64,000 nucleotides of DNA from assembly GCA_900617105.1 (NCBI GenBank), contig UYFQ01000023.1:372001-436000 (forward strand), read 5' to 3'. The DNA is from Hydrurus foetidus. Taxonomy: Eukaryota. Below are positions 2,529 to 33,463 of this stretch, in pieces. The stretch's first letter is position 1. Each line of letters begins with the position of its first letter. A program made the position numbers and the translations under genes. The notes under the pieces were generated by a model. The model had not been told where the DNA came from and did not search any database. It was given only the letters and a program-made list of their open reading frames with translations.

Positions 2529-4337
2529 ATGTACACCTACACCGATTTCGACAAAGCCTTCGTCAAAGCCCGCGCCGACCAGTTCCGCGACCAACTGGGC
2601 CGCTGGCAGTCAGGCTTGCTGACGGAAGACGAATTCAAACCCTTGCGCCTGCAAAACGGCTGGTACGTGCAGCGCTACGCGCCCATGCTGCGCGTGGCCG
2701 TGCCCTACGGCGAGCTGAACAGCGCCCAAATCCGCGTGCTCGCCAAAATCGCCCGTGACTACGATGCCCCCGGCGCCAAAGCCCTGGCCGCTACCGGCTT
2801 GCAATTGGAACAACCCATGGCAGGCGGCATCACCGGCGGCTACGGCCACTTCACCACACGCCAAAACGTGCAGTACAACTGGATCAGCCTGAAAGACAGC
2901 GCTGATGTGATGGACTTGCTGGCCAGCGTCAACCTGCACGGCATCCAGACCAGCGGCAACTGCATCCGCAACACCACCACCGACGAACGCGCTGGCGTGG
3001 CCGTGGATGAGATCGTTGACCCCCGCCCTTACTGTGAAATTTTGCGCCAGTGGAGCACACTGCAACCTGAGTTCGCGCTGCTGCCACGCAAGTTCAAAGT
3101 CGCCTTCTCAGGTGCAACGGACGACCGCGCGGCCACCCATTGGCACGATGTGGGGATGCACGTCATCAAAAACGAAGCAGGTGAAGTGGGTTTGCGCGTC
3201 CTGGTGGGTGGTGGCATGGGCCGCACGCCTGTGATCGCCAGCACGATTCGCCAGTTCCTGCCCTGGAACCAGATGCTGAACTACCTGGAAGCCATCGTGC
3301 GGGTCTATAACCGCTTTGGTCGCCGCGACAACATCTACAAGGCCCGCATCAAAATTTTGGTGAAAGCCGAAGGCCAGCGCTTCATCGATGAGGTGGAGGC
3401 CGAGTACAAAGCCATCATCGAACTCGACGGCGCACCCCACACCATCACCCAAGCCGAGTTTGACCGTGTTTCAGCCTGTTTTATGCCTCCTGTGCTTACT
3501 GCACGGGCGCAGAGCGCTACAGAAAAAGTAGCAACTTTGGTACAAGCCGATACCGTCAACAACCCTGAATTCAGCCGCTGGCTTGAGCGCAACGTGGCCC
3601 CGCACAAGAACGCCAGCCTGCGCATCGTCACTTTGTCATTCAAGCGTACGTTCAGCCAAGAGGGTTCCGCCCCCGGCGACGCCAGCGCTGACCAGCTGGA
3701 TGCCGTGGCCGAATTGGCCGATCGCTTTTCCGCCGGTGAAACCCGCGTCACGCACGACCAAAACATCGTGCTGCCTTGGATCAACGCCAGCGACTTGCCC
3801 TCCGTCTGGGCAGAGGCGAAACGCCTGGGCCTCGCCCGCGCCCAAACCCGCTTACTGACCGACATGATCGCCTGCCCCGGCGGCGATTTTTGCTCACTCG
3901 CCAACGCCCGCTCCATCCCCCTGGCTGCAGCCATCACCGAACGCTACCAAGACCTCGACGAGCTGTACGACCTGGGCGAGATCGACCTGCACATCAGCGG
4001 CTGCATCAACTCCTGCGGCCACCACCACAGCGGCCACATCGGCATTTTGGGTGTCGATAAAGACGGCCAAGAGTGGTACCAAGTCACCCTGGGCGGCTCA
4101 GACGGCTCCGTGCTGAGCGGCACACCGGTGGCCGGCAAAGCGGTTGGCCCATCCTTTACCGCAGCCGAAGTGCCCGAAGTGATCGAAGCCGTGCTCAACG
4201 TCTACAAACAAGAGCGCCAAAGCCTGACCCTGGGCGCAGAAACCTTCATAGACACCCTGCGCCGCGTGGGCGCTGAGCCGTTCAAGCTGGCAGCGAACGC
4301 AGCACGCACGTCGACACAGCGGGCTGTGGCGGTTTAA
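2529..4337 (+). CDS. cysI: Sulfite reductase siroheme hemoprotein subunit
   Basis: HFTTRQN, LPRKFK, ACPGGDFC and SGCINSCGHH siroheme/4Fe-4S ligands; cys operon context. Confidence 0.92.
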   Translation: MYTYTDFDKAFVKARADQFRDQLGRWQSGLLTEDEFKPLRLQNGWYVQRYAPMLRVAVPYGELNSAQIRVLAKIARDYDAPGAKALAATGLQLEQPMAGGITGGYGHFTTRQNVQYNWISLKDSADVMDLLASVNLHGIQTSGNCIRNTTTDERAGVAVDEIVDPRPYCEILRQWSTLQPEFALLPRKFKVAFSGATDDRAATHWHDVGMHVIKNEAGEVGLRVLVGGGMGRTPVIASTIRQFLPWNQMLNYLEAIVRVYNRFGRRDNIYKARIKILVKAEGQRFIDEVEAEYKAIIELDGAPHTITQAEFDRVSACFMPPVLTARAQSATEKVATLVQADTVNNPEFSRWLERNVAPHKNASLRIVTLSFKRTFSQEGSAPGDASADQLDAVAELADRFSAGETRVTHDQNIVLPWINASDLPSVWAEAKRLGLARAQTRLLTDMIACPGGDFCSLANARSIPLAAAITERYQDLDELYDLGEIDLHISGCINSCGHHHSGHIGILGVDKDGQEWYQVTLGGSDGSVLSGTPVAGKAVGPSFTAAEVPEVIEAVLNVYKQERQSLTLGAETFIDTLRRVGAEPFKLAANAARTSTQRAVAV

Positions 4338-4354
4338 AGAAACGATTGAAAAAT

Positions 4355-4759
4355 ATGAAACTAATAGCACTCAACGCCCGCCAAGAGGGCGCTATCGAGC
4401 AAACTGAAGTCCAAACCGTGGTGTTGGCCAACGATGCCAATCCTTTAGACCTCGCCCTCGAAGGCGTGCAGCGCATCGAGCTGAATTTCCCCAAATTCAC
4501 CGATGGCCGCGCCTTCAGCCAAGCCTTTTTGCTGCGCCGCCGCCGGGGCTTCACGGGTGAAATCCGCGCCACGGGTGATGTGTTGGTTGACCAGCTGGTG
4601 CAGATGCAGCGCAGCGGGTTTGACACCGCCGTGCTGCGTGCTGATTTGGACGTGCCCGGCATTGACGCCATCATCGAGCGCCAGTTCGCCCGCTACCCGG
4701 CGTTTTACCAAGGCGATGCGGTCAACACCGCACCGCACTTTGCGAAGGAAGCCGAATGA
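4355..4759 (+). CDS. DUF934 family protein (CysI partner)
   Basis: FPKFTDGRAFSQA.LLR...GEIRATGDVLVDQ...RSGFD...FYQ signature; lies directly after cysI. Confidence 0.9.
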   Translation: MKLIALNARQEGAIEQTEVQTVVLANDANPLDLALEGVQRIELNFPKFTDGRAFSQAFLLRRRRGFTGEIRATGDVLVDQLVQMQRSGFDTAVLRADLDVPGIDAIIERQFARYPAFYQGDAVNTAPHFAKEAE

Positions 4760-5532
4760 GCACCGTTGATTTGAACGCCAAAGCCTCCGCCACGTTCGAC
4801 GCCAAACTGGCTGAAACACAGGCTCTGCTTACGCAGGCAGCTACAACTTTTGCAGCCAATGAAGTCACCCAAGCGTCCAGCCTGGGGGCGGAAGATGTGG
4901 TCATCACCCATCTCATCAACAGCCTCCAACTTGACCTGCCCATCTTTGTGCTGGAAACCGGCAAGCTGCACGCTGAGACGCTACAGATTTTAGAGCAGAC
5001 TACGCAGTCTTCACGTGCACCAGTGACGGTTTACCGCCCCAACCCTGAAGCGGTCATCACCTTTGTGAAACGCGAAGGCGAAGAGCCGATGTACAAGAGC
5101 ATTGCGCTGCGCAAAGCCTGCTGCCATGTCCGCAAAATCGAGCCCTTGAACCGTGCGCTGGCCGATAAAAAGGGCTGGATCACCGGCCTGCGCCGTGAGC
5201 AATCGGGGGCGCGTGCCGACGTTCCCTTGACCGATGACAGCGAGCTTGCCACCACGGGCCGCCTCAAATACAACCCCCTGGCCAACTGGACATGGGGGGA
5301 TGTATGGCATTACATCAAACTGCATAACGTGGCCTACAACCCACTGCACGACCAGTTTTTCCCCAGCATCGGCTGTGCGCCTTGCACCCGCGCCATCAGC
5401 ATGGGAGAAGACTTCCGCGCTGGGCGCTGGTGGTGGGAGGATGAGAACGCCAAAGAATGTGGCTTGCACGTCAAAGCCGAAGGCACTGAAGCTGTTCAAA
5501 TCAGCAGCCTTTCCGAAAGAACCCCCGCATGA
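4756..5532 (+). CDS. cysH: APS reductase (Fe-S type CysH)
   Basis: CCHVRK, ITGLRREQS, SIGCAPCT and GRWWWE..KECGLH motifs. Confidence 0.93.
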   Translation: MSTVDLNAKASATFDAKLAETQALLTQAATTFAANEVTQASSLGAEDVVITHLINSLQLDLPIFVLETGKLHAETLQILEQTTQSSRAPVTVYRPNPEAVITFVKREGEEPMYKSIALRKACCHVRKIEPLNRALADKKGWITGLRREQSGARADVPLTDDSELATTGRLKYNPLANWTWGDVWHYIKLHNVAYNPLHDQFFPSIGCAPCTRAISMGEDFRAGRWWWEDENAKECGLHVKAEGTEAVQISSLSERTPA

Positions 5533-6488
5533 ACGCCCGCACGGAGCCTGAATTGTTAAAGCACGAAACCACTCACCACCTCAGCAACGCTCACCTCGAT
5601 GCGCTGGAAGAGGAAACCATCTTCATTCTGCGCGAAGTCGCCGCCGTGTTCGAGCGACCTACGCTGCTGTTCTCGGGTGGCAAAGACTCCCTGGTGCTGC
5701 TGAAATGCGCTGAAAAAGCCTTCGGCTCCAAAGTGTCCGGTGGCGGCATTCCCTACCCGCTGCTGATGATCGACACCGGCCACAACTTCCATGAAGTGAC
5801 CGATTTCCGGGATTCACGCGCCAAAGAACTCGGCGCCGAGCTGATCGTGCGCAGCGTCGAAGACTCGATGGCACGTGGCACGGTGCGCTTGAGCCACCCC
5901 GGCGAGTCGCGCAACGTGCACCAGTCCGTCACGCTCTTGGAAGCGATTGACGAATTCCGCTTTGATGCGCTGATCGGTGGTGCCCGCCGCGACGAAGAAA
6001 AAGCCCGCGCCAAAGAACGCATCTTCAGCCACCGCGACAGCTTCGGCCAATGGCAACCCAAGGCGCAGCGCCCTGAGTTGTGGAACCTGTTCAACACCAA
6101 ATTGCAGCCCGGCGAACACTTCCGCGTGTTCCCCATCAGCAACTGGACGGAACTCGACGTGTGGCAGTACATCGACCGCGAAAACATCGCCCTGCCCTCG
6201 CTTTACTACACGCACGAACGTGAAGTGGTCGAGCGCAAAGGCCTGCTGGTGCCCGTAACCCCCCTCACTCCACTCAAAGCCGGTGAAACGGCTGAGACCC
6301 GCCATGTGCGCTTTCGCACTGTGGGTGACATCACCTGCACCTGCCCCGTAGAAAGCCTGGCAGCCACCGCCGCCGACATCGTGATCGAAACCCTTGCCGC
6401 CGATGTGAGCGAGCGCGGTGCAACCCGCATGGACGACAAGACCTCGGATGCGTCGATGGAGAAGCGCAAGAAGGATGGCTACTTTTAA
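5529..6488 (+). CDS. cysD: Sulfate adenylyltransferase subunit 2
   Basis: FSGGKDS, GGARRDEEKARAKER, FRTVGD and C-terminal KKDGYF. Confidence 0.95.
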   Translation: MNARTEPELLKHETTHHLSNAHLDALEEETIFILREVAAVFERPTLLFSGGKDSLVLLKCAEKAFGSKVSGGGIPYPLLMIDTGHNFHEVTDFRDSRAKELGAELIVRSVEDSMARGTVRLSHPGESRNVHQSVTLLEAIDEFRFDALIGGARRDEEKARAKERIFSHRDSFGQWQPKAQRPELWNLFNTKLQPGEHFRVFPISNWTELDVWQYIDRENIALPSLYYTHEREVVERKGLLVPVTPLTPLKAGETAETRHVRFRTVGDITCTCPVESLAATAADIVIETLAADVSERGATRMDDKTSDASMEKRKKDGYF

Positions 6489-6494
6489 GGCGCT

Positions 6495-6515
6495 GCGCTA
6501 AAGTAGCTTTAGCGC
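6495..6515. promoter_or_regulatory. Perfect 9-bp inverted repeat upstream of the TA module (operator or hairpin)
   Basis: gcgctaaag-tag-ctttagcgc. Confidence 0.4.
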
Positions 6516-6545
6516 TTGCAGCCACCTCACCCCGGAGTTTTAGTC

Positions 6546-6770
6546 ATGAACACATTTGTCCCTGCTGTGCATTCCAATCCCCAGATTTTGGGTGGAACCC
6601 CCGTGTTCTCAGGCACGCGGGTGCCGTTTCGCATCTTGTTTGAGTACCTGGAAACAGGTGACAGCCTAGATGTGTTCTTAGATGAATTCCCGTCGGTCAG
6701 CCGCGAGTTGGCTGTGGCAGGGTTAGAGCAAGCCCGGCAAGCGGTGTGTCCCAGCTTGGGCCATGCCTGA
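6546..6770 (+). CDS. DUF433 antitoxin
   Basis: NPQILGGTPVFSGTRVP...L..GDSLD.FL.EFP motif; its TGA overlaps the ATG of the next gene. Confidence 0.88.
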   Translation: MNTFVPAVHSNPQILGGTPVFSGTRVPFRILFEYLETGDSLDVFLDEFPSVSRELAVAGLEQARQAVCPSLGHA

Positions 6771-7102
6771 TGCGTGTGCTGCTGGACGAATCCATCCCCA
6801 AGAAGTTGGGTTTTTTGCTGGGCGGGCACCATGTTCGTACGGTGCAAGCGATGGGTTTTGGTGGTTTGGTCAATGGCCAACTGTTGAAAGCGGCATCGCC
6901 AGATTTTGACGTGCTGGTCAGTGGCGATCAAAACATGGTGTACCAGCAAAACCCGCAAACCTTGCCTATGTCAGTCATTGTGTTAGTCGCCAAAAACAAC
7001 AAGCTGGAAAGCTTTGTGCCCCTGATTCCTGAGCTGCTGCGTACGATTGAGCAGTTGCCACAAAAAAGTTTTTACCGTATCGCCGCCCCCGAGGCAGATT
7101 AA
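6770..7102 (+). CDS. DUF5615/PIN-like toxin
   Basis: MRVLLDES...HHVRTV..MG..G..NG.LL..A...FDVLVSGDQN motif; coupled to the DUF433 gene. Confidence 0.85.
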   Translation: MRVLLDESIPKKLGFLLGGHHVRTVQAMGFGGLVNGQLLKAASPDFDVLVSGDQNMVYQQNPQTLPMSVIVLVAKNNKLESFVPLIPELLRTIEQLPQKSFYRIAAPEAD

Positions 7103-7110
7103 CAATAACC

Positions 7111-8493
7111 ATGAACGCTACACAATCCATAGCTTCCCCCGCAGATACAGCAAGTGCTACAGCCTCTATGACCACAACAACATCCCCCCACAACGCCCTG
7201 CGCTTCATCACCTGCGGCTCCGTCGATGACGGCAAAAGCACGCTGATTGGCCGCTTGCTGGTGGACAGCAAATCGGTCTTGCAAGACCAGCTCGCAGGCG
7301 TGCAGCGTGCGGGCGAAACCGATTTGGCGCTGTTGACCGATGGCCTCTCGGCTGAGCGCGAGCAGGGCATCACCATCGACGTGGCTTACCGCTATTTCGC
7401 CACCCCTGACCGCAAATTCATCATCGGCGACGCACCCGGCCACGAGCAGTACACCCGCAACATGGTGACCGCTGCCAGCAGCGCCGATGCGGCCGTGGTG
7501 CTGGTGGACGCGCTGAAACTGGACTGGGCCAACCCCGCGTTGTTGCTGCTGCCACAAACGCGCCGCCACAGCCTGCTGGTGAAGCTGCTGCGCGTGCCGT
7601 CCATCGTGTTCGCTGTGAACAAACTGGATGCCATCGACAGCCCTGAAACTGCGTTCGCCAACATCAGCGCGGCCTTGGAAAAGTTTGCCCAAGAGGCCGG
7701 CATCACCGCCACCGCCATCGTGCCCGTGTCCGCCCTCAAAGGCTGGAACGTGGTGGATGAAAAGCCGGGTTGGTGCAACTACCAAGGTCAGGGGTTGCTA
7801 CAAATTTTGGAGCAATTACCCAACACCCCTGCGGAACCCGATTTGCCCTTCGCCTTCCCCGTGCAGTGGGTGGAAAAATTCTCCGCCAGCGCCGACACCA
7901 GCCAAGGCCGCCGGGTGTTCTGGGGCCGCGTGGCCACGGGCAGCGCGACGGTGGGGCAAGAAGTCATCGTGTTCCCCGGCAATGCAGGCAAAGGCCAAAT
8001 TGCCAAAATCGCCCAAGTCCTTGACCGCGCACGCCGCCCCGGCAACGTGGAATCGACCCAAAGCGCAGGCATCGTGCTTGACCGTGAAGTGGACGTGTCG
8101 CGTGGCGACTGGCTCCTCGCCCACACCGCACAAACCGTGGATGCCGACAGCTTTGACGAACCAGCCCCGACCAGCCTGCAAGGCCAGCGCGAGATCAGCG
8201 CCACCATCGCCTGGATGGACGACGAAGCCCTGGTCGCAGGCCGCGTCTACTGGGCCTTGCATGGTCACCGCTGGGTGAAAGCCAAAGTCAAGCGCATCGT
8301 CCACCGCCTGGACATCAACACGCTGGAAGAGCTGGACGCGACCGAGCTGCCGCCGAACGCCATCGGCCACATCGAGCTGACCCTGCAAGAAGCCCTGGCC
8401 GTGCGCCCTTACGCCGAGTCACGCAGCCTGGGGCAGTTGGTGCTGGTGGACACGGCTTCGCACAAGACTTCGGGTGCGGTGCTGGTGAACTGA
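7111..8493 (+). CDS. cysN: Sulfate adenylyltransferase subunit 1 (GTPase)
   Basis: [36 protein letters not shown] and NKLD motifs; no fused APS kinase domain. Confidence 0.95.
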
Positions 8494-12071: not shown

Positions 12072-14240
12072 ATGGCATCAAAAATTAAGCCTAACCTGTC
12101 TCTTTCGCTCTGTACAAGGGCGTTGATAGCTACGTTTTTTGTAGCACCCTCCGTCTGGGCACAAACCGATGCTGCCCCTGCGGCCGCCATGCTCAAGCCC
12201 ATCACCGTGAACGACCGCAACAGCGCCCCAACCGCCGATATCAGTGGTTTTGGCGATGTGGCACTCAAAGACTTGCCCGCCTCTGCGCTGGTCATCGACA
12301 GCACACAAATGCAGGCCATAGGCGCACGGCGCTTGGCGGATTTGACTGCCTTTGATGCGTCCGTCACCGATGCCTACAACTCGCCCGGCTACTGGGATTA
12401 CCTGACGATTCGCGGCTTCACCCTGGACAACCGCAGCAACTACCGCCGTGAAGGCCTGCCCATCAGCGCTGAAACCTCCATTCCCCTGGAAAACAAAGAG
12501 CGCGTAGAAATCCTCAAAGGCACCAGCGGCATCCAAGCGGGCACCAGTGCGCCGGGTGGCTTGGTGAATTACGTGGTGAAACGGCCCACCGAAAACAACC
12601 TGCGTTCAGCCCGCATCGAGTTCACCAGCCGCAGCAGCGTGCTGACGGCGCTGGATTTGGGGGGTCGCTTGGGTGTGGACAAGGTGTTTGGCTACCGCTT
12701 CAACGTGGCGCACGAGGAAATGCGCCCCCTCACCCGCAACATCAACGGTCACCGCAATCTGGTCGCCCTGGCCGCCGACTGGCGCATCAGCCGCGACACC
12801 GTGGTTGAGGCCGAACTGGAATGGAGCCACAAAGTGCAGGCCAGCCAAGCGGGTTTCAGCCTGTTGGGCAACACCCTGCCCGCCCCTGTTGACCCCCGCC
12901 TGAACCTGAACAACCAGCCTTGGTCACAGCCCTCGGTGTTTGACGCGCTGACGGGCACGCTGCGCATCGAGCAAGCCATCAACAGCGACTGGCGTTGGTC
13001 AGGCCAATTGGGCAGCCAACGCCTGCGCACAGATGACCGGTTGGCCTACCCCTTTGGCTGCGATGCCGAAGGCAATTACGACCGCTTCTGCTCGAACGGC
13101 ACGTACGATCTTTACGATTTCCGCAGCGAAAACGAACGCCGCACACAGCAAGCGGCCAGCGTGAAGCTGAAGGGCAAGTTCACCACGGCGGGTATTGCAC
13201 ACGATGTGAGCTTTGGGTTGATGCAGAGCCAAGTTAAAAACCGTTTCCAGGTGGGCGCGTACAACTACGCAGGCACGGGCAACATACAAGGCACTCTGGT
13301 CACCCCTGCTGACCCCAGCCAGACAGACCAAAACACCAACCGTGATGAGCGCACACTGGAACTGTCCGCCTACGACGCAATCCGCTGGACACCGCGTCTG
13401 AGCACATGGCTGGGCCTGCGCAGCACCAGCCTGACCCGCGACAGCATCCGCACCAACGGCTCACGCGCTACGCATTACGATGCCAGCATCCTCACGCCTT
13501 GGCTGGCAGCCAGCTACGCACTGAACCCCACTTTGCAGGCCTATGCCAGCTACGGCGAAGGCGTGGAATCGCACATCGTACCGAACAAGGCTTCGCAGTA
13601 CAGCAACCCCGGGGTGGCGCTGCCAGCGCTCAAATCCCGTCAATTAGAGGTTGGATTAAAAGGCGGCACAGCAAACCTGGGCTGGCAACTGACGGCCTTT
13701 CGCATAGCCCGCCCCATGAGCAACCTGGATGCCTGCAACCGCTTGGGTATCTCGCCATGCCTGGGTGCGTATGACGGCCAAGCCGTCCACAAAGGCTTAG
13801 AAGCCAGCACCCAGTGGGCGCAAGGCCCGTGGCGTGTGAACGGTGGCATCACCCTGCTCGATGCCCGTCGCCAAGGCAGCACTCTTGAGCCCACAACCAA
13901 CGGCCAGCGCCCGACCAACGTGCCCAACTGGGTGTTGCGCAGCCAGGCGGCTTACCGCGTGGCCAGCGTACCGGGCTTAGAGCTGCAAGGCCGACTGCAA
14001 CACGAAGGCCAACGCGCCGTGCTGCCCGACAACAGCATCACCCTGCCCGGCTGGACGCGCCTGGACGCCAGCCTGCGCTACAGCACCCAAATCGGTGGCA
14101 CCCGCACCACCTGGAGCGCGGGCATCGACAACGTGGCAGACAAGCGTTACTGGAAAGAATCGCCTTACCAGTTCGGCCATGTCTACCTGCTTCCCGGTGC
14201 ACCACGAACTTTTCGCATCGGAATTCAAGCCGACTTGTAA
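12072..14240 (+). CDS. TonB-dependent receptor, TPP-regulated (thiamine or precursor uptake)
   Basis: IRGF, ERVEILKG..G...PGGLVNYV and DNVADKRYW...GAPRTF motifs; downstream of the TPP riboswitch. Confidence 0.9.
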   Translation: MASKIKPNLSLSLCTRALIATFFVAPSVWAQTDAAPAAAMLKPITVNDRNSAPTADISGFGDVALKDLPASALVIDSTQMQAIGARRLADLTAFDASVTDAYNSPGYWDYLTIRGFTLDNRSNYRREGLPISAETSIPLENKERVEILKGTSGIQAGTSAPGGLVNYVVKRPTENNLRSARIEFTSRSSVLTALDLGGRLGVDKVFGYRFNVAHEEMRPLTRNINGHRNLVALAADWRISRDTVVEAELEWSHKVQASQAGFSLLGNTLPAPVDPRLNLNNQPWSQPSVFDALTGTLRIEQAINSDWRWSGQLGSQRLRTDDRLAYPFGCDAEGNYDRFCSNGTYDLYDFRSENERRTQQAASVKLKGKFTTAGIAHDVSFGLMQSQVKNRFQVGAYNYAGTGNIQGTLVTPADPSQTDQNTNRDERTLELSAYDAIRWTPRLSTWLGLRSTSLTRDSIRTNGSRATHYDASILTPWLAASYALNPTLQAYASYGEGVESHIVPNKASQYSNPGVALPALKSRQLEVGLKGGTANLGWQLTAFRIARPMSNLDACNRLGISPCLGAYDGQAVHKGLEASTQWAQGPWRVNGGITLLDARRQGSTLEPTTNGQRPTNVPNWVLRSQAAYRVASVPGLELQGRLQHEGQRAVLPDNSITLPGWTRLDASLRYSTQIGGTRTTWSAGIDNVADKRYWKESPYQFGHVYLLPGAPRTFRIGIQADL

Positions 14241-14264
14241 AAGGGTCAAAAACCACGCTATAAT
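14235..14264 (+). promoter_or_regulatory. Sigma70 promoter of tRNA-Asn
   Basis: TTGTAA-18 nt-TATAAT, 12 nt upstream of the tRNA. Confidence 0.7.
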
Positions 14265-14276
14265 TTGAGGCTAGAT

Positions 14277-14352
14277 TCCTCGATAGCTCAGTTGGTAGAG
14301 CGCCGGACTGTTAATCCGTAGGTCCCTGGTTCGAGCCCAGGTCGAGGAGCCA
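14277..14352 (+). tRNA. tRNA-Asn (GTT)
   Basis: Acceptor stem TCCTCGA/TCGAGGA, anticodon loop CTGTTAA, GGTTCGAGCC T-arm and encoded CCA. Confidence 0.97.
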
Positions 14353-14360
14353 AAAGATAC

Positions 14361-14400
14361 AACCCCCAAGTGTGTAAATGCTTGGGGGTTTCGTCTTTCT
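14361..14400 (+). terminator. Intrinsic terminator after tRNA-Asn
   Basis: aacccccaag-N10-cttgggggtt followed by a T-rich tail. Confidence 0.75.
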
Positions 14401-14513
14401 GGGGTGCGCTGCCCTGCTGGAATCCTGCTTTGTGTGTTGCACCAGCCGAGCTCAGATCGGGCCGCAGTGGTTCGGTTGAACTGCCCTCTCACATTCAACG
14501 ACTGAAAGAAACA

Positions 14514-14759
14514 ATGTTTGATAAAACCGGCCAATGGATCCACCTTGAAACATTTGAAGGATTTGACAATGGCCTGTCAGACCTGATTGAGCTCTGGTCC
14601 AGTAAGACGGCAACCCAAGACATCAAGGAATCGGCACTCGCTCATTTCAAGGAAGACCTGGAGGGTGCTTCACTCAATTGGGCGGACAACCGGGCCAAGT
14701 TGAAAAAATTCGCTGCCATTAGCAAAGAGTTGGCTGAGTTTGAAGAAGCGCTGAAGTAA
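14514..14759 (+). CDS. Small hypothetical protein or gene remnant in the tRNA islet
   Basis: 81-aa charged, helical-looking ORF with lower GC; no recognised motif. Confidence 0.4.
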   Translation: MFDKTGQWIHLETFEGFDNGLSDLIELWSSKTATQDIKESALAHFKEDLEGASLNWADNRAKLKKFAAISKELAEFEEALK

Positions 14760-14775
14760 GGTCCAAACAATGGCA

Positions 14776-15249
14776 TCAATAAATGAAGCGGCAGCTTGGG
14801 GTTTGAGCGTCAACGCCCAGGTGAACTGGGCGCCATTGGCGACTGTACTCTGCCCCGTGCTTTTTGCACTTCCATTCGCATTCGCCCAGCATCTTGATGC
14901 CTGTGCTGTCCACCAAAAGATGCAGCCCTGAACCGGTGCTTCGCGTAAACGGAATGGCTACTGCCAGCCGATTTTGTCTTCTGCACAGAGTGCTGTAATC
15001 TGGTGTCTCCCAATCCAGTCCTGCGAGTTTTAACAAGCTTTGCACCATCCCTGTCGTTTGACGTAACGCAAGTCCAAACAGACTTTTGATGCTCAGACAG
15101 AACTGGATCGCCGCGTCTGAAAATCTCTCATTGCGCCCACGTCGCCCGTTCGACTTGTCCCAACCAATCCATGTCTTTGTCGAACCACACCAGCAGCGAA
15201 ACGATTCTGCTTTCGACTGCTTGCCACTTCTTTGGCCCACACCCCCCAT
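14776..15249 (-). pseudogene. Truncated IS5-family (IS903-group-like) transposase
   Basis: GRRGR..FSDAAIQFCL..K.LFGLALRQTTG, PDYSTLCRRQ and VDSTGIK..GE.EW..KHG..RQWR.VHLGVD motifs; C-terminal catalytic half missing. Confidence 0.85.
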
Positions 15250-15300
15250 TCAAAAGCTCGAAGTATCTTGACGGAATTCGTTTTTTGACGAAAATCGACT

Positions 15301-15618
15301 ATGCACTAAATTCGCCACTACCTGACTGAAGACAAGAACGACGTTTACCTCGATTGGCTGAAAAAACAGCGGGATACCATTGCAAGAATCTCCATTGATA
15401 GACGCGTCAACCGCGTGGAGCAAGGCAATTTTGGAGATCACAGGTTCTTCCGTGATGGCGTGTGGAAACTTCGCATTGATGTGGGCGCAGGCTACAGGGC
15501 GTACTACGCGATTGAAGGCAAAGAAATCGTGTTGCTGTTGTGTGGCGGCGATAAGCGAAAGCAAGATGCGGACATAGCCCGCGCTTGTGACTACTGGCAA
15601 GATTGGCAACGGAGCGCA
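15301..15618 (+). pseudogene. RelE/HigB-type addiction module toxin, disrupted
   Basis: ATG CAC TAA then in-frame IRHYLT...GNFGDH...GVW.LRIDVGAGYR.YY...LLLCGGDKRKQDADI; has no stop codon of its own. Confidence 0.8.
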
Positions 15619-15930
15619 ATGAAAAACAGAACGCATGGTGAAGCCATGGCTGAGTTGTACCGGGAAGACCCCGCCTATGCCGCTCAACTGCTGAACAGTA
15701 TTCTCGAAGATGGCGATCAACGTGAACTGTTGATCGCACTGCGTCAAATGGCAAAAGCATTTGGTGGTGTGCAGGCTGTTGCCGAACAAGCACACCTCAA
15801 CCCAACGCAGCTTTACCGCACCCTATCGCCAGAGGGTAATCCTGCTTTGAGCAGCTTTTCAGCCATTCTCAAGGCGATGGGTATGCGCCTTGCCATTCAG
15901 CCGATGAGCGGCCCAGCCGTACACGCCTGA
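15619..15930 (+). CDS. HTH addiction module antidote (HigA-like)
   Basis: GGAG RBS before the ATG; ALRQMAKAFGGVQAVAEQAHLNPTQLYRTLSPEGNP HTH. Confidence 0.85.
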   Translation: MKNRTHGEAMAELYREDPAYAAQLLNSILEDGDQRELLIALRQMAKAFGGVQAVAEQAHLNPTQLYRTLSPEGNPALSSFSAILKAMGMRLAIQPMSGPAVHA

Positions 15931-15932
15931 AG

Positions 15933-16688
15933 ATGGCGCTACCGTGGCTTGAACCCGGCGAAGCCTTTCCGCCCATTGAAACCGCCTGGGGTGCTGACGA
16001 CCCCGCGCCCGGCTTGCTGGCGGCGGGTGGGGCATTGGATGTGGATTCTCTGCTGCAAGCCTACAGCCACGGCATCTTCCCCTGGTTCAGCGAAGGTCAG
16101 CCAATTTTGTGGTGGAGCACTGATCCACGCATGGTGCTGCCCCCGGCTGATTTCCGTTTGCACCGCTCGTTGGCGAAGACGCTGCATAAATTCAAAAATG
16201 ATCCGGCTTGTGAACTGCGCTTTGATACCGCGTTTGGCGAGGTGATTCGCGCCTGCGCCCACAGCCCGCGTGATGGCGGCACGGTGGCCAGTGGTACCTG
16301 GATTGTTCCTGACATGGTGGCGGCTTACGAGGCGCTGCACCGAGCGGGGTTCGCGCACAGCGTTGAAACCTGGGTGCATGGGCGGCTGGTGGGCGGCTTG
16401 TACTGCGTGGCGATCGGCCACGCTGTGTTTGGCGAATCCATGTTCAGCCGCGAAACGGATGCCTCCAAAATTGCATTGGCAGGTTTGGTGGCGTTTTGCC
16501 GTGTGCAAGGCGTGGGCTTGATCGACTGCCAGCAGAACACGCGCCACCTCGCTTCACTGGGTGCGCGTGAAATCAGCCGCAGCCGTTTTGCCACACACCT
16601 GACGCAGGCTTGCACGCTGCCTGCCCTGCCCTGGCACTTTGAAAACGTATACTGGAATCGCCTGTTTCAAGCTGAAGCTCCGGCCTGA
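15933..16688 (+). CDS. aat: Leucyl/phenylalanyl-tRNA--protein transferase
   Basis: GLLAAGG, GIFPWFS, WWSTDPR, AHSVE, GESMFS, DASKIAL and IDCQQ motifs. Confidence 0.95.
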
Positions 16689-16735
16689 TACCCCTGAACA
16701 CTGCCCGCTACATTCCGTTTTATGGAGGTTTTCTG

Positions 16736-17482
16736 GTGACGCATCTCAACGACCTCCCCGTTCAGACTTTGCAGTTTTACGCCACGGCCCCTTACGAGTG
16801 CAGCTACATCGCACAACGGCAAGCGCGGTCGCAGGTGGCCACGCCCAGCCATTTGATTCACAACAGCGCTTACTCTGATTTGGTGGACAAAGGCTTTCGC
16901 CGCAGCGGCATGTTCACCTACCGCCCCTACTGCGACAACTGCCAAGCCTGCGTACCTCTGCGCGTGCCGGTGGCACAGTTCAAACCTGACCGCAGCCAGC
17001 GCCGGGCTGCATCACGACACCAGGATTTGCAAGTGCGGGTGTCCCCTCTGCACTTTGTGCCTGAGCATTACGCGCTGTACCTGCGTTACCAGTCCGGGAG
17101 GCACTCGGGTGGTGGCATGGACCACGACAGCATCGACCAGTACACCCAGTTTTTGTTGCAAAGCCGGGTGAATTCGCGCTTGGTGGAATTCCGCACGGCA
17201 ACGGACGATGGCAGCCCTGGCCGCTTGGTGATGGTGTCGATACTGGACATGCTGGATTTGGGTTTGTCAGCGGTCTACACGTTTTACGAACCCGAGGCGG
17301 GTACCAGCTATGGCACGTTCAGTGTGATGTGGCAAATCGATCAAGCACGCTCCCTGGGCTTGCCCTATGTGTACCTGGGTTACTGGATCGCAGAAAGCGG
17401 CAAGATGAATTACAAAGCCGATTTTTTGCCGCATGAAATTTTGCGTGATGGCGAGTGGAAGCCCGGTCAAGAAGCCGCTTGA
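16736..17482 (+). CDS. ATE-like aminoacyl-tRNA--protein transferase (Bpt/Ate)
   Basis: CSY, GFRRSG..YRPYC..C..C, SAVYTFY and YLGYWI..KMNYK motifs; follows aat. Confidence 0.92.
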
Positions 17483-17561
17483 AACAGCGGGTGAAAACGG
17501 CATCAACTGTGAGACTAAATTTCACAAGGTAAAATTTAGTGCATAACCGAATGTGCCGCCC

Positions 17562-18356
17562 ATGAGAACGTCAGACCCGAATACCCCCGTCTCCCCCACC
17601 ATCCAGGTCATTGAACGCATTTTTTCCGTCATGGATGTGCTGGCATCGAAAGAAGAGTCGGTTTCGCTGAAGGAAATCAGCGAAAAAACGGGGCTGCACC
17701 CCTCCACCACCCACCGCATCCTGAACGATCTGACGATTGGCCGTTACGTAGACCGCCCGGAAGCAGGCAGCTACCGGCTGGGCATGCGGTTACTGGAGCT
17801 GGGCAACTTGGTCAAAGGCCGGTTGAATGTGCGCGATGCCGCCTTGACCCCCATGCGCGAGCTGCACAAACTGACGCAGCAACCCGTCAACCTCAGCATG
17901 CGCCAAGGTGATGAGATCGTGTACGTGGAACGCGCCTACAGCGAGCGCTCGGGTATGCAGGTGGTAAGGGCTATTGGGGGTCGAGCACCGCTGCATTTGA
18001 CTTCAGTGGGTAAATTATTCTTAGCAGCAGACGACTTGCAACGCACGCGTGCCTACGCCACCCGCACCGGTCTTTCGGGCCACACCCGCAACAGCATCAC
18101 GCAACTGGCCGTGCTGGAGCGCGAACTGTCCAAAGCCCGCCAATATGGCATTGCACGGGACAACGAAGAGCTGGAATTGGGTGTGCGCTGCATGGCTGCA
18201 GGCATTTACGACGACCAATCGCGCTTGGTGGCAGGGTTGTCGATTTCGGCACCGGCAGACCGGTTAGACGAAAACTGGTTGCCTAAGCTGCAAACCACAG
18301 CGAATGAAATCTCGAATGCATTGGGCTACAAACCCGGCAACAGCTCAAAAAACTAG
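17562..18356 (+). CDS. IclR family transcriptional regulator
   Basis: N-terminal HTH (GLHPSTTHRIL); GGRAPLHLTSVGK and DNEE..LGVRC motifs. Confidence 0.92.
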   Translation: MRTSDPNTPVSPTIQVIERIFSVMDVLASKEESVSLKEISEKTGLHPSTTHRILNDLTIGRYVDRPEAGSYRLGMRLLELGNLVKGRLNVRDAALTPMRELHKLTQQPVNLSMRQGDEIVYVERAYSERSGMQVVRAIGGRAPLHLTSVGKLFLAADDLQRTRAYATRTGLSGHTRNSITQLAVLERELSKARQYGIARDNEELELGVRCMAAGIYDDQSRLVAGLSISAPADRLDENWLPKLQTTANEISNALGYKPGNSSKN

Positions 18357-18389
18357 GCCAGCCCAAGACCTGGTTTTTGAGCGTGAAGC

Positions 18390-19523
18390 TCAGTCATCGC
18401 CACCAGCTTGACGGGCACCCACAGGCATGAACCGGGGACTGGCCTCGACCCAACGGCGCACACGTTCAGCGTCCCCCAAGCGGCTGAGTTTGCCCGCAGA
18501 ATCCAAAAACACCATGATGAGCTTGCGCCCGGCAATCTTGGCCTGCATAACCAAGCACTGCCCGGCTTCGGTGATGTAGCCGGTTTTTTGCAAACCAATT
18601 TCCCATGACGGATTTTTCACCAAGCGGTTGGTGTTGTTGTATTGCAGCGTGCGGTTCCCTACTTCGACTTGGTAGCCTGGTGAGGTTGTCAGCTCGCGCA
18701 ACACAGGGTCTTGGTAAGCGGCATTCACCAAGGTTGCCAAATCATGGGCGCTGGATTGGTTTTGGCTGGACAAGCCGGTGGGCTCTACATAATGCGTGTC
18801 TTTCATCCCCAGCATTTGGGCTTTGGCGTTCATCAGCGATGCAAAAACCTGCAAACCACCGGGGTAGGTGCGGCCTAAAGCGTGAGCAGCACGGTTTTCG
18901 CTGGACATCAGCGCCAAGTGCAGCAATTCACCACGGCTCAAGGTTGCGCCTACACGCAGGCGCGAACTGCTGCCCTTTTCGGTGTCCACGTCGTCTTGCG
19001 TGATGGTGATGAGTTCTTCCATCGGCAAACGCGCTTCACTGATGATGGTGCCGGTCATCAGCTTGGTCAACGAGGCAATCGGCAGCACCGCTTTGTCGTT
19101 CTTGCTGAACAGCACCTCGCGTGTGTCTTGGTCAATCACCAGAGCCACGCTGGATTTCAAATCTAAAGCATCTTGAGCGCCATGCAAACCGGCAAGTTGA
19201 CCGAACGACGGTTTGGCAGGCACGAAAACCGCTTGGCTAACAACGCGTGGGCGGCTCACAGAAGCAACACGCTTGCTTTGCACACGGTTCTTGGCTTGCC
19301 CTGCAGCATGGGCAGGGGTGCGAACAGCGGCATTAGCAGGGGCTTTTTTAACGGCAACTTTGGCCGTTTTGGCAGGCGCATGTTGCACCGCTTGCACAGC
19401 CAGAGGCGCAGTCAAGGCAACGCCCACGACAACCGCGCCCAAGGCAGACCAAACCTGCGGCATAGAGCGCGACAACAACCGGAGGGGAATAAATTGCGAA
19501 AACGTGCTCATTCGGTAGGCCAT
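18390..19523 (-). CDS. pbpG: D-alanyl-D-alanine endopeptidase (PBP7-like)
   Basis: SLTK (SxxK), SEN (SxN) and KTG motifs; exact start uncertain. Confidence 0.88.
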   Translation of the reverse strand: MAYRMSTFSQFIPLRLLSRSMPQVWSALGAVVVGVALTAPLAVQAVQHAPAKTAKVAVKKAPANAAVRTPAHAAGQAKNRVQSKRVASVSRPRVVSQAVFVPAKPSFGQLAGLHGAQDALDLKSSVALVIDQDTREVLFSKNDKAVLPIASLTKLMTGTIISEARLPMEELITITQDDVDTEKGSSSRLRVGATLSRGELLHLALMSSENRAAHALGRTYPGGLQVFASLMNAKAQMLGMKDTHYVEPTGLSSQNQSSAHDLATLVNAAYQDPVLRELTTSPGYQVEVGNRTLQYNNTNRLVKNPSWEIGLQKTGYITEAGQCLVMQAKIAGRKLIMVFLDSAGKLSRLGDAERVRRWVEASPRFMPVGARQAGGDD

Positions 19524-19665
19524 GAATTCATCTCCGGCAAATCAATAAAAGCCAGAGTGTATAGATATATTGAAAACCACAACGGGATCAATCACTTGCG
19601 TTGATTTTTTAATTTAAAAAATGATGTTGCGCCTGCCGCGTCTTTGTGGGGGTCGCCCACAAAAC

Positions 19666-19694
19666 GCAACAGTCGATTTTAATCGGCTGTTGCG
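19666..19694. terminator. Inverted repeat downstream of leuA (probable terminator hairpin)
   Basis: cgcaacagtcgatt-tt-aatcggctgttgcg. Confidence 0.45.
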
Positions 19695-19749
19695 TCCCAA
19701 GAACGCCTGCGCCATGGCAGGGCGCGTAAAGCGGCTCCTTTGCTGACCC

Positions 19750-21288
19750 TTACCCTTGCGCGGCCACCCTGTCCGCTTTGCTGTGCAGCTTGTTCAACGC
19801 GCTCAGGTAGGCCTTGGCCGACGCCACCACGATATCGGGGTCGGCGCCCACTCCGTTGACCACACGGCCACTGTTTTGCAGACGCACCGTCACTTCGCCC
19901 TGGCTTTCAGTTGAGCCACTGATAGCGTTCACCGAGTACAGCACCATTTCGGCACCGCTTTTGACGTGAGATTCAATGGCTTTGAGCGAAGCATCCACCG
20001 GGCCGTTGCCGCTGGATTCCGCTTTGAATTCTTTGCCATCCACCGTGATGACGATGGCCGCATGGGGCTGCTCGCCGGTTTCGCTGCGTTGCGACAACGA
20101 GATAAAGCCATACTGCTCTTTCTCTTCGGTCACGCTTTCATCACTGACCAGCGCCAAGATGTCTTCGTCAAAAATCTCACTTTTGCGGTCTGCCAGTTCT
20201 TTAAAACGGGTGAAGGCATGGTTGATGGCGGTTTCGCTGTCGAGCTGCACGCCCAACTCGGTCAAACGCTGCTTGAAGGCATTGCGTCCGCTGAGCTTGC
20301 CCAGCACAATTTTGTTGGCCGACCAGCCCACGTCTTCGGCACGCATGATTTCGTACGTGTCACGCGCTTTGAGCACACCATCTTGGTGGATACCACTGGC
20401 GTGCGCAAAGGCGTTAGCACCCACCACCGCTTTGTTCGGCTGAACGACAAAACCAGTGGTCTGGCTGACCATGCGGCTGGCAGCCAGAATGTGCAGGGTG
20501 TCTATGCCCATCGTCAAGCCAAAGTAGTCTTTGCGGGTTTTGACCGCCATCACCACTTCTTCGAGCGAACAGTTGCCCGCACGCTCACCCAAACCATTGA
20601 TGGTGCATTCCACTTGGCGCGCGCCACCGATCTTGACCCCGGCCAAGCTGTTCGCCACGGCCATGCCCAAGTCGTTGTGGCAATGGACTGACCAAATGGC
20701 TTTGTCGGAATTGGGAATGCGCTCGCGCAAATTCTTGATGAAATTGCCGTACAGCTCGGGAATGGCGTAGCCCACGGTATCGGGCACGTTGATGGTGGTG
20801 GCACCTTCAGCAATCACCGCCTCGATCACGCGGCAGAGAAAGTCCGGGTCAGAGCGGTAGCCGTCTTCCGGGCTGAACTCGATGTTGTCCATCAAATTGC
20901 GGGCAAAACGGGTGGAAAGCTTGGCCTGCTCGAACACCTGATCGGGCGACATGCGCAGCTTCTTTTCCATGTGCAGGGCGCTGGTGGCCAAGAACAGGTG
21001 CAAACGGCCTGAAGCGGCGGGCTTCAACGCCTCAGCGGCGCGGGCAATGTCGCGGTCGTTAGCGCGGGCCAGTGAGCAAATGGTGGATTCGCGGATCACT
21101 TCGGCAATGGCTTTGACGCATTCAAAATCGCCGTTCGAGCTGGCCGCAAAGCCCGCCTCAATCACGTCCACCTTCAGGCGCTCCAGTTGGCGGGCGATAC
21201 GGACTTTTTCGTCCTTGGTCATGGAAGCGCCGGGCGATTGCTCGCCATCACGCAAGGTGGTGTCAAAAATAATGAGTTTGTCGGTCAT
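19750..21288 (-). CDS. leuA: 2-isopropylmalate synthase, E. coli-type
   Basis: [23 protein letters not shown] and [10 protein letters not shown] motifs. Confidence 0.95.
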
Positions 21289-21312
21289 GGGGGATCTCCG
21301 GTTCAGGTTGTT

Positions 21313-23013
21313 TTAAGCAGTCAAAGATTCAGTAGCGGATGCCGATTGTGGCGCTTTGGCACGCTGCACGCCCGAGAGTATGGCCTTCAACGAGGCGGAC
21401 ACGATGTTGGCATCCATGCCTACACCGAAAAGCGTTTCACGGTCGTCCACGCGCAATTCGAGGTAGGCGACAGCCTTGGCGTTCGCCCCAGAACCCATCG
21501 CATGTTCATGGTAGTCCAGCACCCGCACGCTGTGGCCCGTGGCGGCATTCAGCCCGGCAATGAAGGCGTCGATAGGCCCAGTGCCTTCGCCGTTCAGGGT
21601 GTAAGCCTCGCCTTGCAACGCCACTTGCGCGGCCATTTTGACCCAGGCCGTGCCATCCGCTTGCGTCTCTTCAACAAGCTGGTGGTGAGGTGCTGGCACG
21701 CTGGCAAGACCGTATTCGCGCTCAAACAAATCCCACAAATCTTGCGCCGTTAACTCTTTGCCCGCAGCGTCCATCACGCCTTGCACCACACGGCTGAATT
21801 CGATTTGCAAGCGGCGTGGTAATTCCAGGCCGAATTCGCTCTCCAACAAGTACGCGATACCGCCTTTGCCCGACTGGCTGTTCACGCGAATCACCGCTTC
21901 GTAGCTGCGGCCCAGGTCTTTGGGGTCAATCGGCAAATAAGGCATGTCCCAAATATCATCGGCCTTGCGTGCTGAAAACGCCTTCTTAATGGCATCCTGG
22001 TGTGACCCTGAAAATGAGGTGTAAACCAAATCCCCAGCGTAAGGATGGCGCGGGTGAACGGGCAACTGGTTGCAAAACTCCACCGTTCGGCGAATCTCGT
22101 CGATATTGGAAAAATCCAAGCCCGGTGAAACCCCCTGGGTGTAAAGATTCAACGCCACATTCACCACATCCAAATTGCCGGTACGCTCGCCATTGCCAAA
22201 CAAGCAGCCCTCAATGCGGTCAGCGCCCGCCATCAGCGCGAACTCACCCGCAGCCGTACCCGTGCCCCGGTCGTTGTGGGGATGAACGCACAACACGATG
22301 GACTCGCGCCGTGCCAAGTTGCGGTGCATCCATTCGATCATGTCCGCAAAAATATTGGGCGTGGAATGCTCTACGGTGGAAGGCAAATTGACAATGCATT
22401 TGTGCGATGGTGTAGGCTGCCAGACAGCCGTCACAGCATCGACCACACGTTTGGAAAAGGCCAATTCGGTGCCAGAGAACATCTCAGGGGAATACTGGAA
22501 AGTCCAGTGTGTTTGAGGCTGCCCAGCAGCAAAGTCGTTGAACATTTGAGCGTGTGTCACGGCCAAATCCACAATCTCGTCCTCGTTCATGCCCAGCACG
22601 ACACGGCGCATCACCGGTGCAGTCGCGTTGTAGAGGTGGACGATGGCACGCTTAGCCCCTTGAAGCGACTCGAAGGTGCGGCGAATCAAAGGTTCACGGG
22701 CCTGCGTCAACACCTGAATGGTCACATCGTCAGGAATAAGGTTTTCGTCAATCAACCGGCGAACGAAATCAAATTCAACTTGAGAAGCCGAGGGAAAACC
22801 TACTTCAATCTCTTTGAAACCTACCGCCACCAGCGTCTCGAACATGCGCAACTTGCGGCCCATGTCCATAGGCTCAATAAGCGCTTGGTTGCCGTCGCGC
22901 AGATCGGTACTGAGCCAAATAGGCGCTTGTGTCAGCACAGCATCAGGCCATGTGCGGTCACGCAAGGCGATGGGTTTAAAAGCGGCGTATTTGCTGGCAG
23001 GTTGTTTCAACAT
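21313..23013 (-). CDS. leuA: 2-isopropylmalate synthase, yeast/actinobacterial-type
   Basis: [34 protein letters not shown] and [11 protein letters not shown] motifs. Confidence 0.93.
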
Positions 23014-23054
23014 GATGAGGTTTCACTCGATTTTCAAAAACCAACAGCCCAATG

Positions 23055-23091
23055 CAAAACGGCCCGCTGCTGGTGCAAACGGGCCGTTTTG
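23055..23091 (-). terminator. Attenuator terminator of the leu leader
   Basis: caaaacggcccg...cgggccgttttg hairpin between the leader ORF and leuA. Confidence 0.8.
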
Positions 23092-23109
23092 ACAGGAATC
23101 GCGCGTGCG

Positions 23110-23163
23110 CTACCGTCTCCGCCCGTAGGGGATTAGCAGTAGCGATAGCGAAATTTGGTTCAT
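23110..23163 (-). CDS. leu operon leader peptide MNQISLSLLLIPYGRRR
   Basis: ATG AAC CAA ATT TCG CTA TCG CTA CTG CTA ATC CCC TAC GGG CGG AGA CGG TAG; four Leu codons, three of them CTA. Confidence 0.82.
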   Translation of the reverse strand: MNQISLSLLLIPYGRRR

Positions 23164-23187
23164 GGTTGGATTTTAGTACAAATTACT

Positions 23188-26848: not shown

Positions 26849-27138
26849 GCCACACCTCCGCTGCGGGTACACAACCGCATGCCATCTTCGATGAACGTAC
26901 CGCAAGCCCGCAGGCGCTGACCAGATTCGGTGCTGATCCAGCAGTCTTGGCAGGAGCCCATCATGCAAAACCCGGCACGCGGCTGGCCGCTGAATTCGCT
27001 GGTGCGCAGTTGTGCGGTGTGGGTCAGCACAGCGGTCAACACCGTGTCACCGGCCAGCGCCGTCACAGGCAGGCCATCGAGCACAAAAGCCACGCTGGGG
27101 CGACCGGCCTCAGTCAAGCGTTGGAGCAAGGCGGTCAT
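26845..27138 (-). CDS. (2Fe-2S)-binding subunit (HcnA-like)
   Basis: FCMMGSCQDC...RAC. Confidence 0.88.
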   Translation of the reverse strand: MTALLQRLTEAGRPSVAFVLDGLPVTALAGDTVLTAVLTHTAQLRTSEFSGQPRAGFCMMGSCQDCWISTESGQRLRACGTFIEDGMRLCTRSGGVA

Positions 27139-27929: not shown

Positions 27930-27948
27930 GGTGCTTGTCCTTAAAGCT

Positions 27949-29876: not shown

Positions 29877-30027
29877 CAGGAAAACCTCCAGGAAGCAGGT
29901 CAATTCGTCACGCCAGAATGAGATTCAGGTCGCGCTTGGGGGTCATGCTTGGATCATGCGCAGATCAATCCATGCCACCTTAATGCCACGCATACTACGT
30001 GCCACTTTGAAAACAGGTCAACAGAGT

Positions 30028-30115
30028 ATTCCGCATATTGGTATATATTTTTAATTTATTCCACTCTATGGAATTTAAGTAAACTTATATCCATATTAAT
30101 TCCATCAATAGGTAT
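30028..30115. promoter_or_regulatory. Three related 17-bp dyads in the divergent promoter (candidate IclR operators)
   Basis: attccgcatattggtat (30028), attccactctatggaat (30058), attccatcaataggtat (30099). Confidence 0.6.
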
Positions 30116-30118
30116 TCC

Positions 30119-30940: not shown

Positions 30941-30974
30941 GCAAACGGCATCCTCTGCTTGCCTTTGCCTGAGA

Positions 30975-31790: not shown

Positions 31791-31895
31791 AAATGTGCCT
31801 ATTTTCTTGCCTGTAGTGCTTATCTGTAGGGCATAGTGCGCTACAAAAATAAGAGTATTCAATGAAATAGAGTGTAAGCCAGCGGCTCAAGCACC

Positions 31896-31921
31896 AAAAA
31901 AAAGGGCCACCGAAGTGGCCC
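31896..31921 (-). terminator. Intrinsic terminator after ilvC
   Basis: gggccac-cgaa-gtggccc hairpin with an 8-nt T tail on the minus strand. Confidence 0.85.
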
Positions 31922-31962
31922 TGGCTGATTCTGCCCCAGCAGGGCAACCCTCGCAGCGGTGC

Positions 31963-33460: not shown

Positions 33461-33463
33461 AGG

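Follow-up and report, generated by a model that had tools for sequence, protein, structure and literature searches.

Short palindromic sites in a cys operon and across the chromosome, very likely operators of an HxlR/DUF24 winged-helix protein

When a short DNA element recurs within the coding sequences of one operon, two questions arise: whether the element or the encoded protein dictates the sequence, and what reads the element. The locus that raises them here is the cys cluster (tauE-cysI-DUF934-cysH-cysD-(toxin-antitoxin-like pair)-cysN-ferredoxin) of a 64-kb window, by which we mean the whole stretch analysed (64,000 nucleotides; positions 372,001 to 436,000 of contig UYFQ01000023.1, assembly GCA_900617105.1, filed under Hydrurus foetidus). 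Its nearest relatives by CysI are two betaproteobacterial metagenome-assembled genomes (96-97% identity), followed by Comamonadaceae (62-73%). A first-pass annotation had described six element copies in this operon and proposed that selection on the DNA site overrides codon bias and local protein sequence. We found that the copies are real, that they belong to a genome-wide pattern and that their core is very likely the operator of an HxlR/DUF24 winged-helix protein. Our reading, to which we give a probability of roughly 55%, is that this protein is likely to bind the sites and that it probably organises the chromosome rather than switching the cys genes.

The element consists of a 17-bp palindromic core, GCTAY-N7-RTAGC, usually with a 48-bp tail on one side that contains GC-N11-GC, a T tract and an A tract, the strongest A/T period being 10.5 bp. 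The window holds seven perfect cores, compared with 0.03-0.17 in Markov sequences (30 per order); among arm spacers of 3 to 13, only 7 was enriched (7 matches), and the single other match was at spacer 5. We also used a 69-bp site model trained solely on 42 non-coding sites from two sister genomes, G001 and G002. Between 2400 and 9000 it returned exactly the six cys copies that had been annotated, for which the quoted peptides and both quoted DNA strings were also correct; it found 15 sites in the whole window and none in 10 order-5 Markov sequences. A search of Rfam returned no family for the element. Among 171 copies there was no arm covariation or excess pairing in the core, as expected for a duplex read by a dimer, and three tail pairs reached p 0.008-0.05 among 18 tested, uncorrected. 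A hairpin function of the kind seen in repetitive extragenic palindromes (REPs), with compensatory pairing, was tested and is unsupported, given the lack of any pairing excess in the core.

The element had been presented as a feature of the cys operon, and in this respect the annotation was too narrow. The sister genomes carry about 1.7 sites per 10 kb, more than half of them inside genes, and G001 has 221 cores with an A/T centre. A further 150 genomes of the family proved to be bimodal: 43 gave counts of 31-605 (site-rich) and 107 gave counts of 0-15 (site-poor), where reversed-pattern controls gave 0-11. In G001 (1.07 Mb), the 69-bp model placed 115 of 195 sites in genes, 17 on gene edges and 63 between genes, the genes having been called with a codon-score script that gives approximate starts.

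Within genes, codon choice is clearly affected. Synonymous shuffling yields 1.55 perfect internal cores (20 shuffles, maxima 3 and 5), compared with 20 in G001 and 14 in G002. Where a peptide is compatible with the core in frame 0, G001 had a perfect core in 36 of 90 cases (1.4 expected) and G002 had one in 24 of 64 (1.0 expected). Between the sisters, the synonymous bases of the arms were kept at 73 of 86 positions versus 41.0 for the same codons elsewhere, and those of the spacer at 70 of 93 versus 56.5 (46 coding sites in 429 gene pairs; the one-direction figure is used, because the two-direction count of 195/222 double-counts). Given the peptides of the window, each of the six cys site scores (sites 1 to 6 in Table 1) was reached by at most 0.3% of 20,000 recodings; as these sites were chosen, the values describe codon choice only. 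In the same recoding, P for the tail was 1e-4 at site 1, 0.008 at site 4, 0.07 at site 3 and 0.31 (not significant) at site 6. The local codon-adaptation check that the annotation had proposed agreed: a site coincides with the lowest window of cysI, DUF934 and cysN, and with the first and third lowest of cysH. As for the A/T-ending codons said to be unusual, all three CTA of the five genes lie in cores (ATA, two of three), and for TTA the figure is one of five, with one more just beside a core. That the DNA site overrides codon bias is strongly supported.

The other half of the proposal, that the site also overrides protein sequence, is weakly supported, and the peptides appear to be largely ancestral. 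A compatible peptide was found 91 times versus 69.6 expected (1.3-fold), where neighbouring spacers gave 60-82, and identity was 0.90 at cores versus 0.93. Sites favour fast-evolving genes (2.38 per 10 kb in the lowest-identity quartile of genes versus 0.43 in the highest), are rarer in genes with atypical codon use (0.6 versus 1.1-1.35) and show a strong frame bias. We then compared 80 cys loci, dropping cysH orthologues below 45% identity. ATEKVA, which the frame reads at site 1, corresponds to ADAKIA in 31 of 78 CysI orthologues; TLALLER occurs in 10 of 45 CysH orthologues; and CysN orthologues have helices of the LL[EDQRS][IL]LE[EHGQ] type throughout, LLQILEQ itself being found in 2 of 67. 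About one amino-acid change is needed per internal site. Five taxa (Macromonas, Tepidimonas, L015 and two Hydrogenophaga) have neither the site nor a match to the candidate regulator protein introduced below; their peptides are nearly the same (SDEKIA and TDEKVA; TLALLER; LLEILEQ and LLQLLEK) and their codons differ, being the usual G/C-ending ones. Of the outcome that the annotation had named as refuting its proposal, the same peptides and codons in taxa without the element, one half is therefore seen, that on the peptides. The peptide LQILEQ is indeed common to CysH and CysN, as had been noticed; in each protein it seems to consist mostly of an ancestral L-x-x-L-E helix, with a Gln imposed by the motif. 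What maintains the site is mainly a shift in codon choice, and to a smaller degree a change in protein.

What, then, reads the core? The lead came from a genome with three counted copies (G123), in which perfect cores stand just upstream of an HxlR gene and an adjoining gene of the carboxymuconolactone-decarboxylase family. A search with this protein returned a conserved relative of 104 residues, encoded in the two sisters as well as in Rhodoferax, Polaromonas and Variovorax and preceded by a perfect core in every case. Over 66 orthologue loci, a perfect core lies within 300 bp upstream in 58 and a core with at most one mismatch in 61; at the 20 loci from site-poor genomes, a perfect core is upstream in 13. 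The right arm of the core is the TTGTAG -35 box of a promoter, 17 bp from a TATAGT -10 box, in the usual arrangement, and several orthologue loci have a second core downstream. The association extends outside the clade: all 13 distant homologues from a 301-genome sample of the phylum have two tandem copies at most 134 bp upstream (21 of the 26 perfect). Their genomes have only 1-5 copies in all, and in six of the eight with copies listed every copy is beside the gene. The gene occurs in 42 of 43 site-rich genomes, counting one split gene and one match at 57% identity, versus 22 of 107 site-poor ones (Fisher p=9e-20, uncorrected for kinship), and site-poor carriers average 5.3 sites, non-carriers 0.4. 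These co-occurrences give us high confidence that a dimer of the protein binds the core. Separately, the regulator gene is present twice in G003 (L104 and L106), and paralogous HxlR genes at two loci (L081:7007-8011 and L201) have two or three perfect cores, as small local circuits. Such paralogues would cross-bind the genome-wide sites where both occur.

The protein matches PF01638 with 27.7 bits (cut-off 20.8). Its single-sequence fold was poor (predicted local distance difference test, pLDDT, 59.7) and was replaced by an alignment-based model (pLDDT 84.7), a predicted winged helix with a long C-terminal helix whose best structural match is YodB (E 2.7e-5). A sequence search of solved structures gave no match, NCBIfam gave sub-cut-off matches only, and the database names for the protein are generic. 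Concerning the N-terminal redox-sensing cysteine, the G001 and G002 protein contains no cysteine at all and 13 of the 66 orthologues have one within the first 20 residues. The absence of cysteine from the sister protein implies that the YodB/HypR thiol switch is absent. Orthologues from site-poor genomes are more diverged than those from site-rich ones (identity to the consensus 0.796 versus 0.839, p=2e-4); long C-termini are also commoner among them (9 of 20 versus 2 of 45).

The placement of the sites bears on what such a protein might do. In-gene sites of G001 lie in both orientations (62 and 53). Divergent gaps are under-used (7 of 62 intergenic sites versus 125 of 547 gaps) and convergent ones over-used (11 of 62 versus 55 of 547), and only 4 of 183 spacings are below 500 bp (17 expected). 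On one complete chromosome the spread is even (100 sites over the first 3.27 Mb and 31 over the last 0.94 Mb), and the first 100 of its 131 sites show no replichore polarity (26+/36- versus 19+/19-, p=0.54). Taken together, the even spread, the lack of polarity, the use of both orientations, the few divergent gaps and the wide spacing suggest that a structural protein fits better than gene control.

We also considered the possibility that the same protein is a global transcription regulator for which in-gene and gene-start sites act as roadblocks or tuners, with the cys operon favoured. The DUF24 proteins characterised so far are regulators that control their own expression and have short inverted repeats as operators, as the available part of PMC3351151 describes for HypR, and in site-poor genomes the cores occur at promoters and in terminator-like stems. 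Sites are denser in the cys operon itself (six in 4.35 kb) than in any other stretch we met (at most four among 320 sister sites in 1.87 Mb), and a random model gives about an 11% chance of one such cluster per 4-Mb genome. In the sisters the operon carries 4 and 5 sites, and 10 kb of flanking DNA carries none. The copy at the DUF934 start codon (site 2) occupies the same position in the two sisters and, of nine other genomes with a measured site-rich count, in eight; it is absent in L069 and in L072, L074 and L076 (the genomes of the last three are uncounted for sites), and is the only cys copy widely kept across genera. Some of the others turn over: the site 1 core is retained in both sisters, site 3 has decayed in one (L001) and is retained in the other (L002), site 4 has its CTA replaced by CTG in L002, site 5 is also found in L001, L002, L011, L013 and L021, and site 6 in both sisters and Polaromonas L071. 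However, the majority of sites fall in the middle of genes, gaps with divergent promoters are under-used, extrapolation gives ~700 sites per genome, and the cysteine-free sister protein would lack the thiol switch. In addition, the operon is just 1.8-fold denser than its flanks in the nine other site-rich genomes (12 in 43 kb versus 11 in 73 kb), an excess mostly due to the single DUF934 start site. We therefore regard global gene control as unlikely. A cys-specific role is unsupported beyond the lineage of the window, and the operon is a good example, not established as a special target.

Several observations weigh against the chromosome-organising role that we prefer, and against parts of its basis. 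The regulator gene is not in the 64-kb window, and we infer its presence in that genome from the sisters (91-92% mean protein identity). A core is missing upstream at 5 of the 20 site-poor orthologue loci and in Pseudorhodoferax and L200; the six Hydrogenophaga carriers comprise four with a one-mismatch variant and two that lack a core. The gene had no match in one site-rich genome (G024, 2.1 Mb), and in another with 89 sites (G011) it is split (C1:1687347-1687653) by a frameshift or an assembly error. Nor is the gene sufficient, as 22 of 64 carrier genomes have 15 sites or fewer; these carriers, with their more diverged proteins, make a second factor or a lost genome-wide role likely. Site-rich and site-poor genomes are unseparated on a quick, poorly resolved protein tree (15 label changes), and the correlation between gene and sites is not phylogenetically independent. 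The tail differs by lineage (G122 has 416 cores, only 8 with the GC-N11-GC tail), is missing from most operators at the regulator gene itself and is not detectably conserved at synonymous bases between the sisters (54/85 versus 48.6, p=0.14). Finally, the step from binding to an architectural role is drawn from the site distribution.

Another explanation is a drive like that of uptake sequences, in which site-bearing DNA is favoured in uptake, protection or recombination during natural transformation, with no benefit per locus. The helically phased A/T tracts in the tail resemble those of the uptake signal sequence (USS) of Pasteurellaceae. The distribution, too, is like that of USS and of the DNA uptake sequence (DUS) of Neisseria, as far as the portions of PMC2817400 and PMC2397512 at hand describe them: hundreds of copies, many in genes, with a frame bias, more in tolerant genes and positions, fewer in atypical genes, and some in terminators. 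In contrast to DUS and USS, however, the core is palindromic and appears to be the operator of a cytoplasmic regulator, even in genomes with only 1-5 copies, and the peptide effect is weaker (at most 1.3-fold, within reach of neighbouring spacers, versus ~2-fold for uptake sequences). The papers that a search on competence in Comamonadaceae returned, judged by titles and the starts of abstracts, did not deal with uptake specificity. Such a drive thus seems improbable.

Did the sites arise by insertion? The alignment of orthologues proposed in the annotation, which had spoken of element copies, indicates otherwise. At site 1 the CysI segment has 38 residues here and in 60 of 78 orthologues; at site 4 the CysH segment has 31 here and in 40 of 45; at site 6 the CysN segment has 27 in 67 of 67. 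At site 3 the CysH segment has 25 residues here versus 23 in 40 of 45, the site adjoining a two-codon insertion common to the three close relatives. The internal cys sites thus add 0, 0, 0 and +2 codons, three of the four overlying ancestral peptides without length change (the site 4 tail lies over the conserved SRAPVTVYRP), and the five site-free taxa have equal segment lengths within one residue at the three sites without indels. We found no sign of transposon insertion. Both N-terminal copies (DUF934 and CysN) lie in stretches whose length varies; the CysN extension, roughly the length of one element, is absent in site-free L015, L017, L020 and L034 and present without the site in L055, L057 and L060. 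Between the sisters, 104 of 115 comparisons had no gap in the footprint (both directions are counted, hence double-counted), and among 53 intergenic comparisons there were four "absent" cases, none a clean 65-bp indel. A comparison with 400 kb of the 2.7-Mb outgroup G039 covered 7 distinct sites, at which lengths differed by a net -4 to +5 residues. The 171 copies are roughly as dissimilar as sequences drawn independently from the profile (mean identity 0.448 versus 0.452; maximum 0.74 versus 0.67), and 0 of 14,535 pairs exceed 80% identity. No terminal repeats were seen, target duplications not having been searched for separately. The same lengths, the lack of gaps, the dissimilar copies and the lack of covariation suggest that the sites most likely arose in place through substitution; for whole genomes, the main basis of this statement is the cys orthologues together with the sisters. 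A 65-bp mobile unit of the REP type or like a miniature inverted-repeat transposable element, which captured the operator and left decaying relics in genes, would suit the fixed-length one-sided tail with its lineage dialects and poor conservation and the CysN extension, but on these data it is largely refuted for the internal sites and very improbable as a whole.

If the chromosome-organising reading is right, a dimer would read the two 5-bp arms across the A/T-rich centre, and the one-sided tail, with A/T tracts every 10.5 bp, may bend the DNA or wrap it round a partner or a larger oligomer. The ancestral protein may have acted locally, repressing its own gene from two operators; binding to a site every 5-6 kb would then have turned useful in some lineages of Comamonadaceae. 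Point mutation could have made these sites in any non-coding stretch, free N-terminus, loose loop or compatible helix that permitted it, under selection per site that would stand above codon preference and below most protein constraint. This history, in which a two-operator autorepressor became an architectural protein and its 65-bp bent footprint was point-mutated into several hundred places per genome, is offered tentatively, as one that may well be wrong.

Sites dispersed over the chromosome, often inside genes, are known from MatP/matS, SlmA/SBS, Noc/NBS, KOPS and Chi. The present site resembles them in being a dimer-type site scattered round the chromosome and often in genes; unlike them, it is neither confined to nor excluded from one region, has no polarity, is far more numerous and belongs to another protein family. 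The candidate protein shares with the MarR/DUF24 (HxlR) proteins YodB, QsrR and HypR its fold, Pfam family, inverted-repeat operator with an A/T centre and autoregulation (here judged from the operator), and differs from them by the lack of a sensing cysteine in this lineage, by hundreds of sites over the chromosome where they have a few promoters, and by the directional tail. According to the part of PMC3351151 available, the HypR box is a 7-2-7 repeat and HypR probably represses itself. Rickettsia palindromic elements, GTAG/CGTC REPs and BRE are likewise short in-frame repeats in genes, but they are insertions or hairpins as described in the accessible text of PMC3733652 and PMC10969869; the main text of the GTAG/CGTC REP survey does not mention the genera concerned here. 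BRE of Betaproteobacteria (69% GC, ~90 bp, at most 29 copies in the part of PMC3110155 at hand) was judged different by description, not sequence. Our literature search, which largely left subscription journals uncovered, turned up fragments of the motif; none of the papers it found assigned a binding protein or put copies within coding sequence to the test. The fragments come from a survey of uncharacterised motif pairs, reportedly by Tong, Schliekelman and Mrazek in 2017. Section 13 and a few supplement rows of PMC5217627 list ATAGCT(N22)CAAAAG in Polaromonas, GCTTAT(N5)AAGCG in Acidovorax and GCTAT_TATAG, which fit pieces of the present core and tail; those sections give fragments only, with no unit, binding protein or coding-sequence test.

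The coordinates of the cys genes and sites are collected in Table 1. The long cysN start is supported by the sisters, whose equivalent ATG overlaps the cysD stop. In the window, cysD and cysN are separated by a DUF433/DUF5615 toxin-antitoxin-like pair (6546-7102), which appears to be a recent insertion because the cysD stop overlaps the cysN start in both sisters; a perfect 9-bp inverted repeat (6495-6515) lies upstream of the pair. Two structured RNAs are within about 150 bp of a core, a thiamine pyrophosphate (TPP) riboswitch (11879-11988; core 12129) and an ilvH RNA (33467-33534; core 33587). In site-poor L174, L179, L180 and L181 (around 1501), the core is the centre of terminator-like hairpins; one follows a tRNA-like stretch and two follow what we take to be ribosomal protein genes. 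Elsewhere, seven tandem copies of a 246-bp unit (55957-57732; 74-95% identity) likely encode an 82-residue protein repeat, and two direct-repeat pairs (191 bp at 93% and 96 bp at 80%; 54786-55069 and 60422-60975) flank this tandem-repeat gene region.

Table 1. Genes of the cys cluster and element copies in the 64-kb window
Feature	Position	Strand	Details
cysI, sulfite reductase haemoprotein	2529..4337	+	PF01077, PF03460
DUF934 gene	4355..4759	+	PF06073
cysH, (P)APS reductase	4756..5532	+	PF01507
cysD	5529-6488
cysN, sulfate adenylyltransferase GTPase subunit	7111..8493	+	PF00009, PF22594
Site 1, in cysI	3468..3536	-	perfect core 3516-3532 and full tail; score 40.8
Site 2, over DUF934 start codon	4348..4416	+	core 4352-4368, 2 mismatches, includes ATG, and tail; score 18.2
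Site 3, in cysH	4792..4860	-	core 4840-4856, 1 mismatch, weak tail; score 14.0
Site 4, in cysH	4976..5044	+	core 4980-4996, 1 mismatch, and tail; score 19.6
Site 5, variable CysN N-terminal extension	7113..7181	+	perfect core 7117-7133 and tail; score 25.1
Site 6, in cysN	7749..7817	-	core 7797-7813, 1 mismatch; score 19.2
Nine further copies	within 12129..62902		cores 12129, 31840, 33587, 38689, 46298, 51024, 52240, 61856, 62886
Perfect core without tail	48237

If this reading is true, the element would be a third DNA code laid on a bacterial proteome, after the two uptake sequences, and the first to be driven by the operator of a transcription factor. An abundant and unexplained repeat of a large environmental family gains a named candidate binding protein, so that its function becomes testable. 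Relatives with the same protein range from 0 to 600 sites and may offer a natural series from a local regulator to a genome-wide one. In addition, this constraint at the DNA level holds rare codons in place in hundreds of genes, a point of importance to studies of codon bias and to the recoding of genes from these bacteria.

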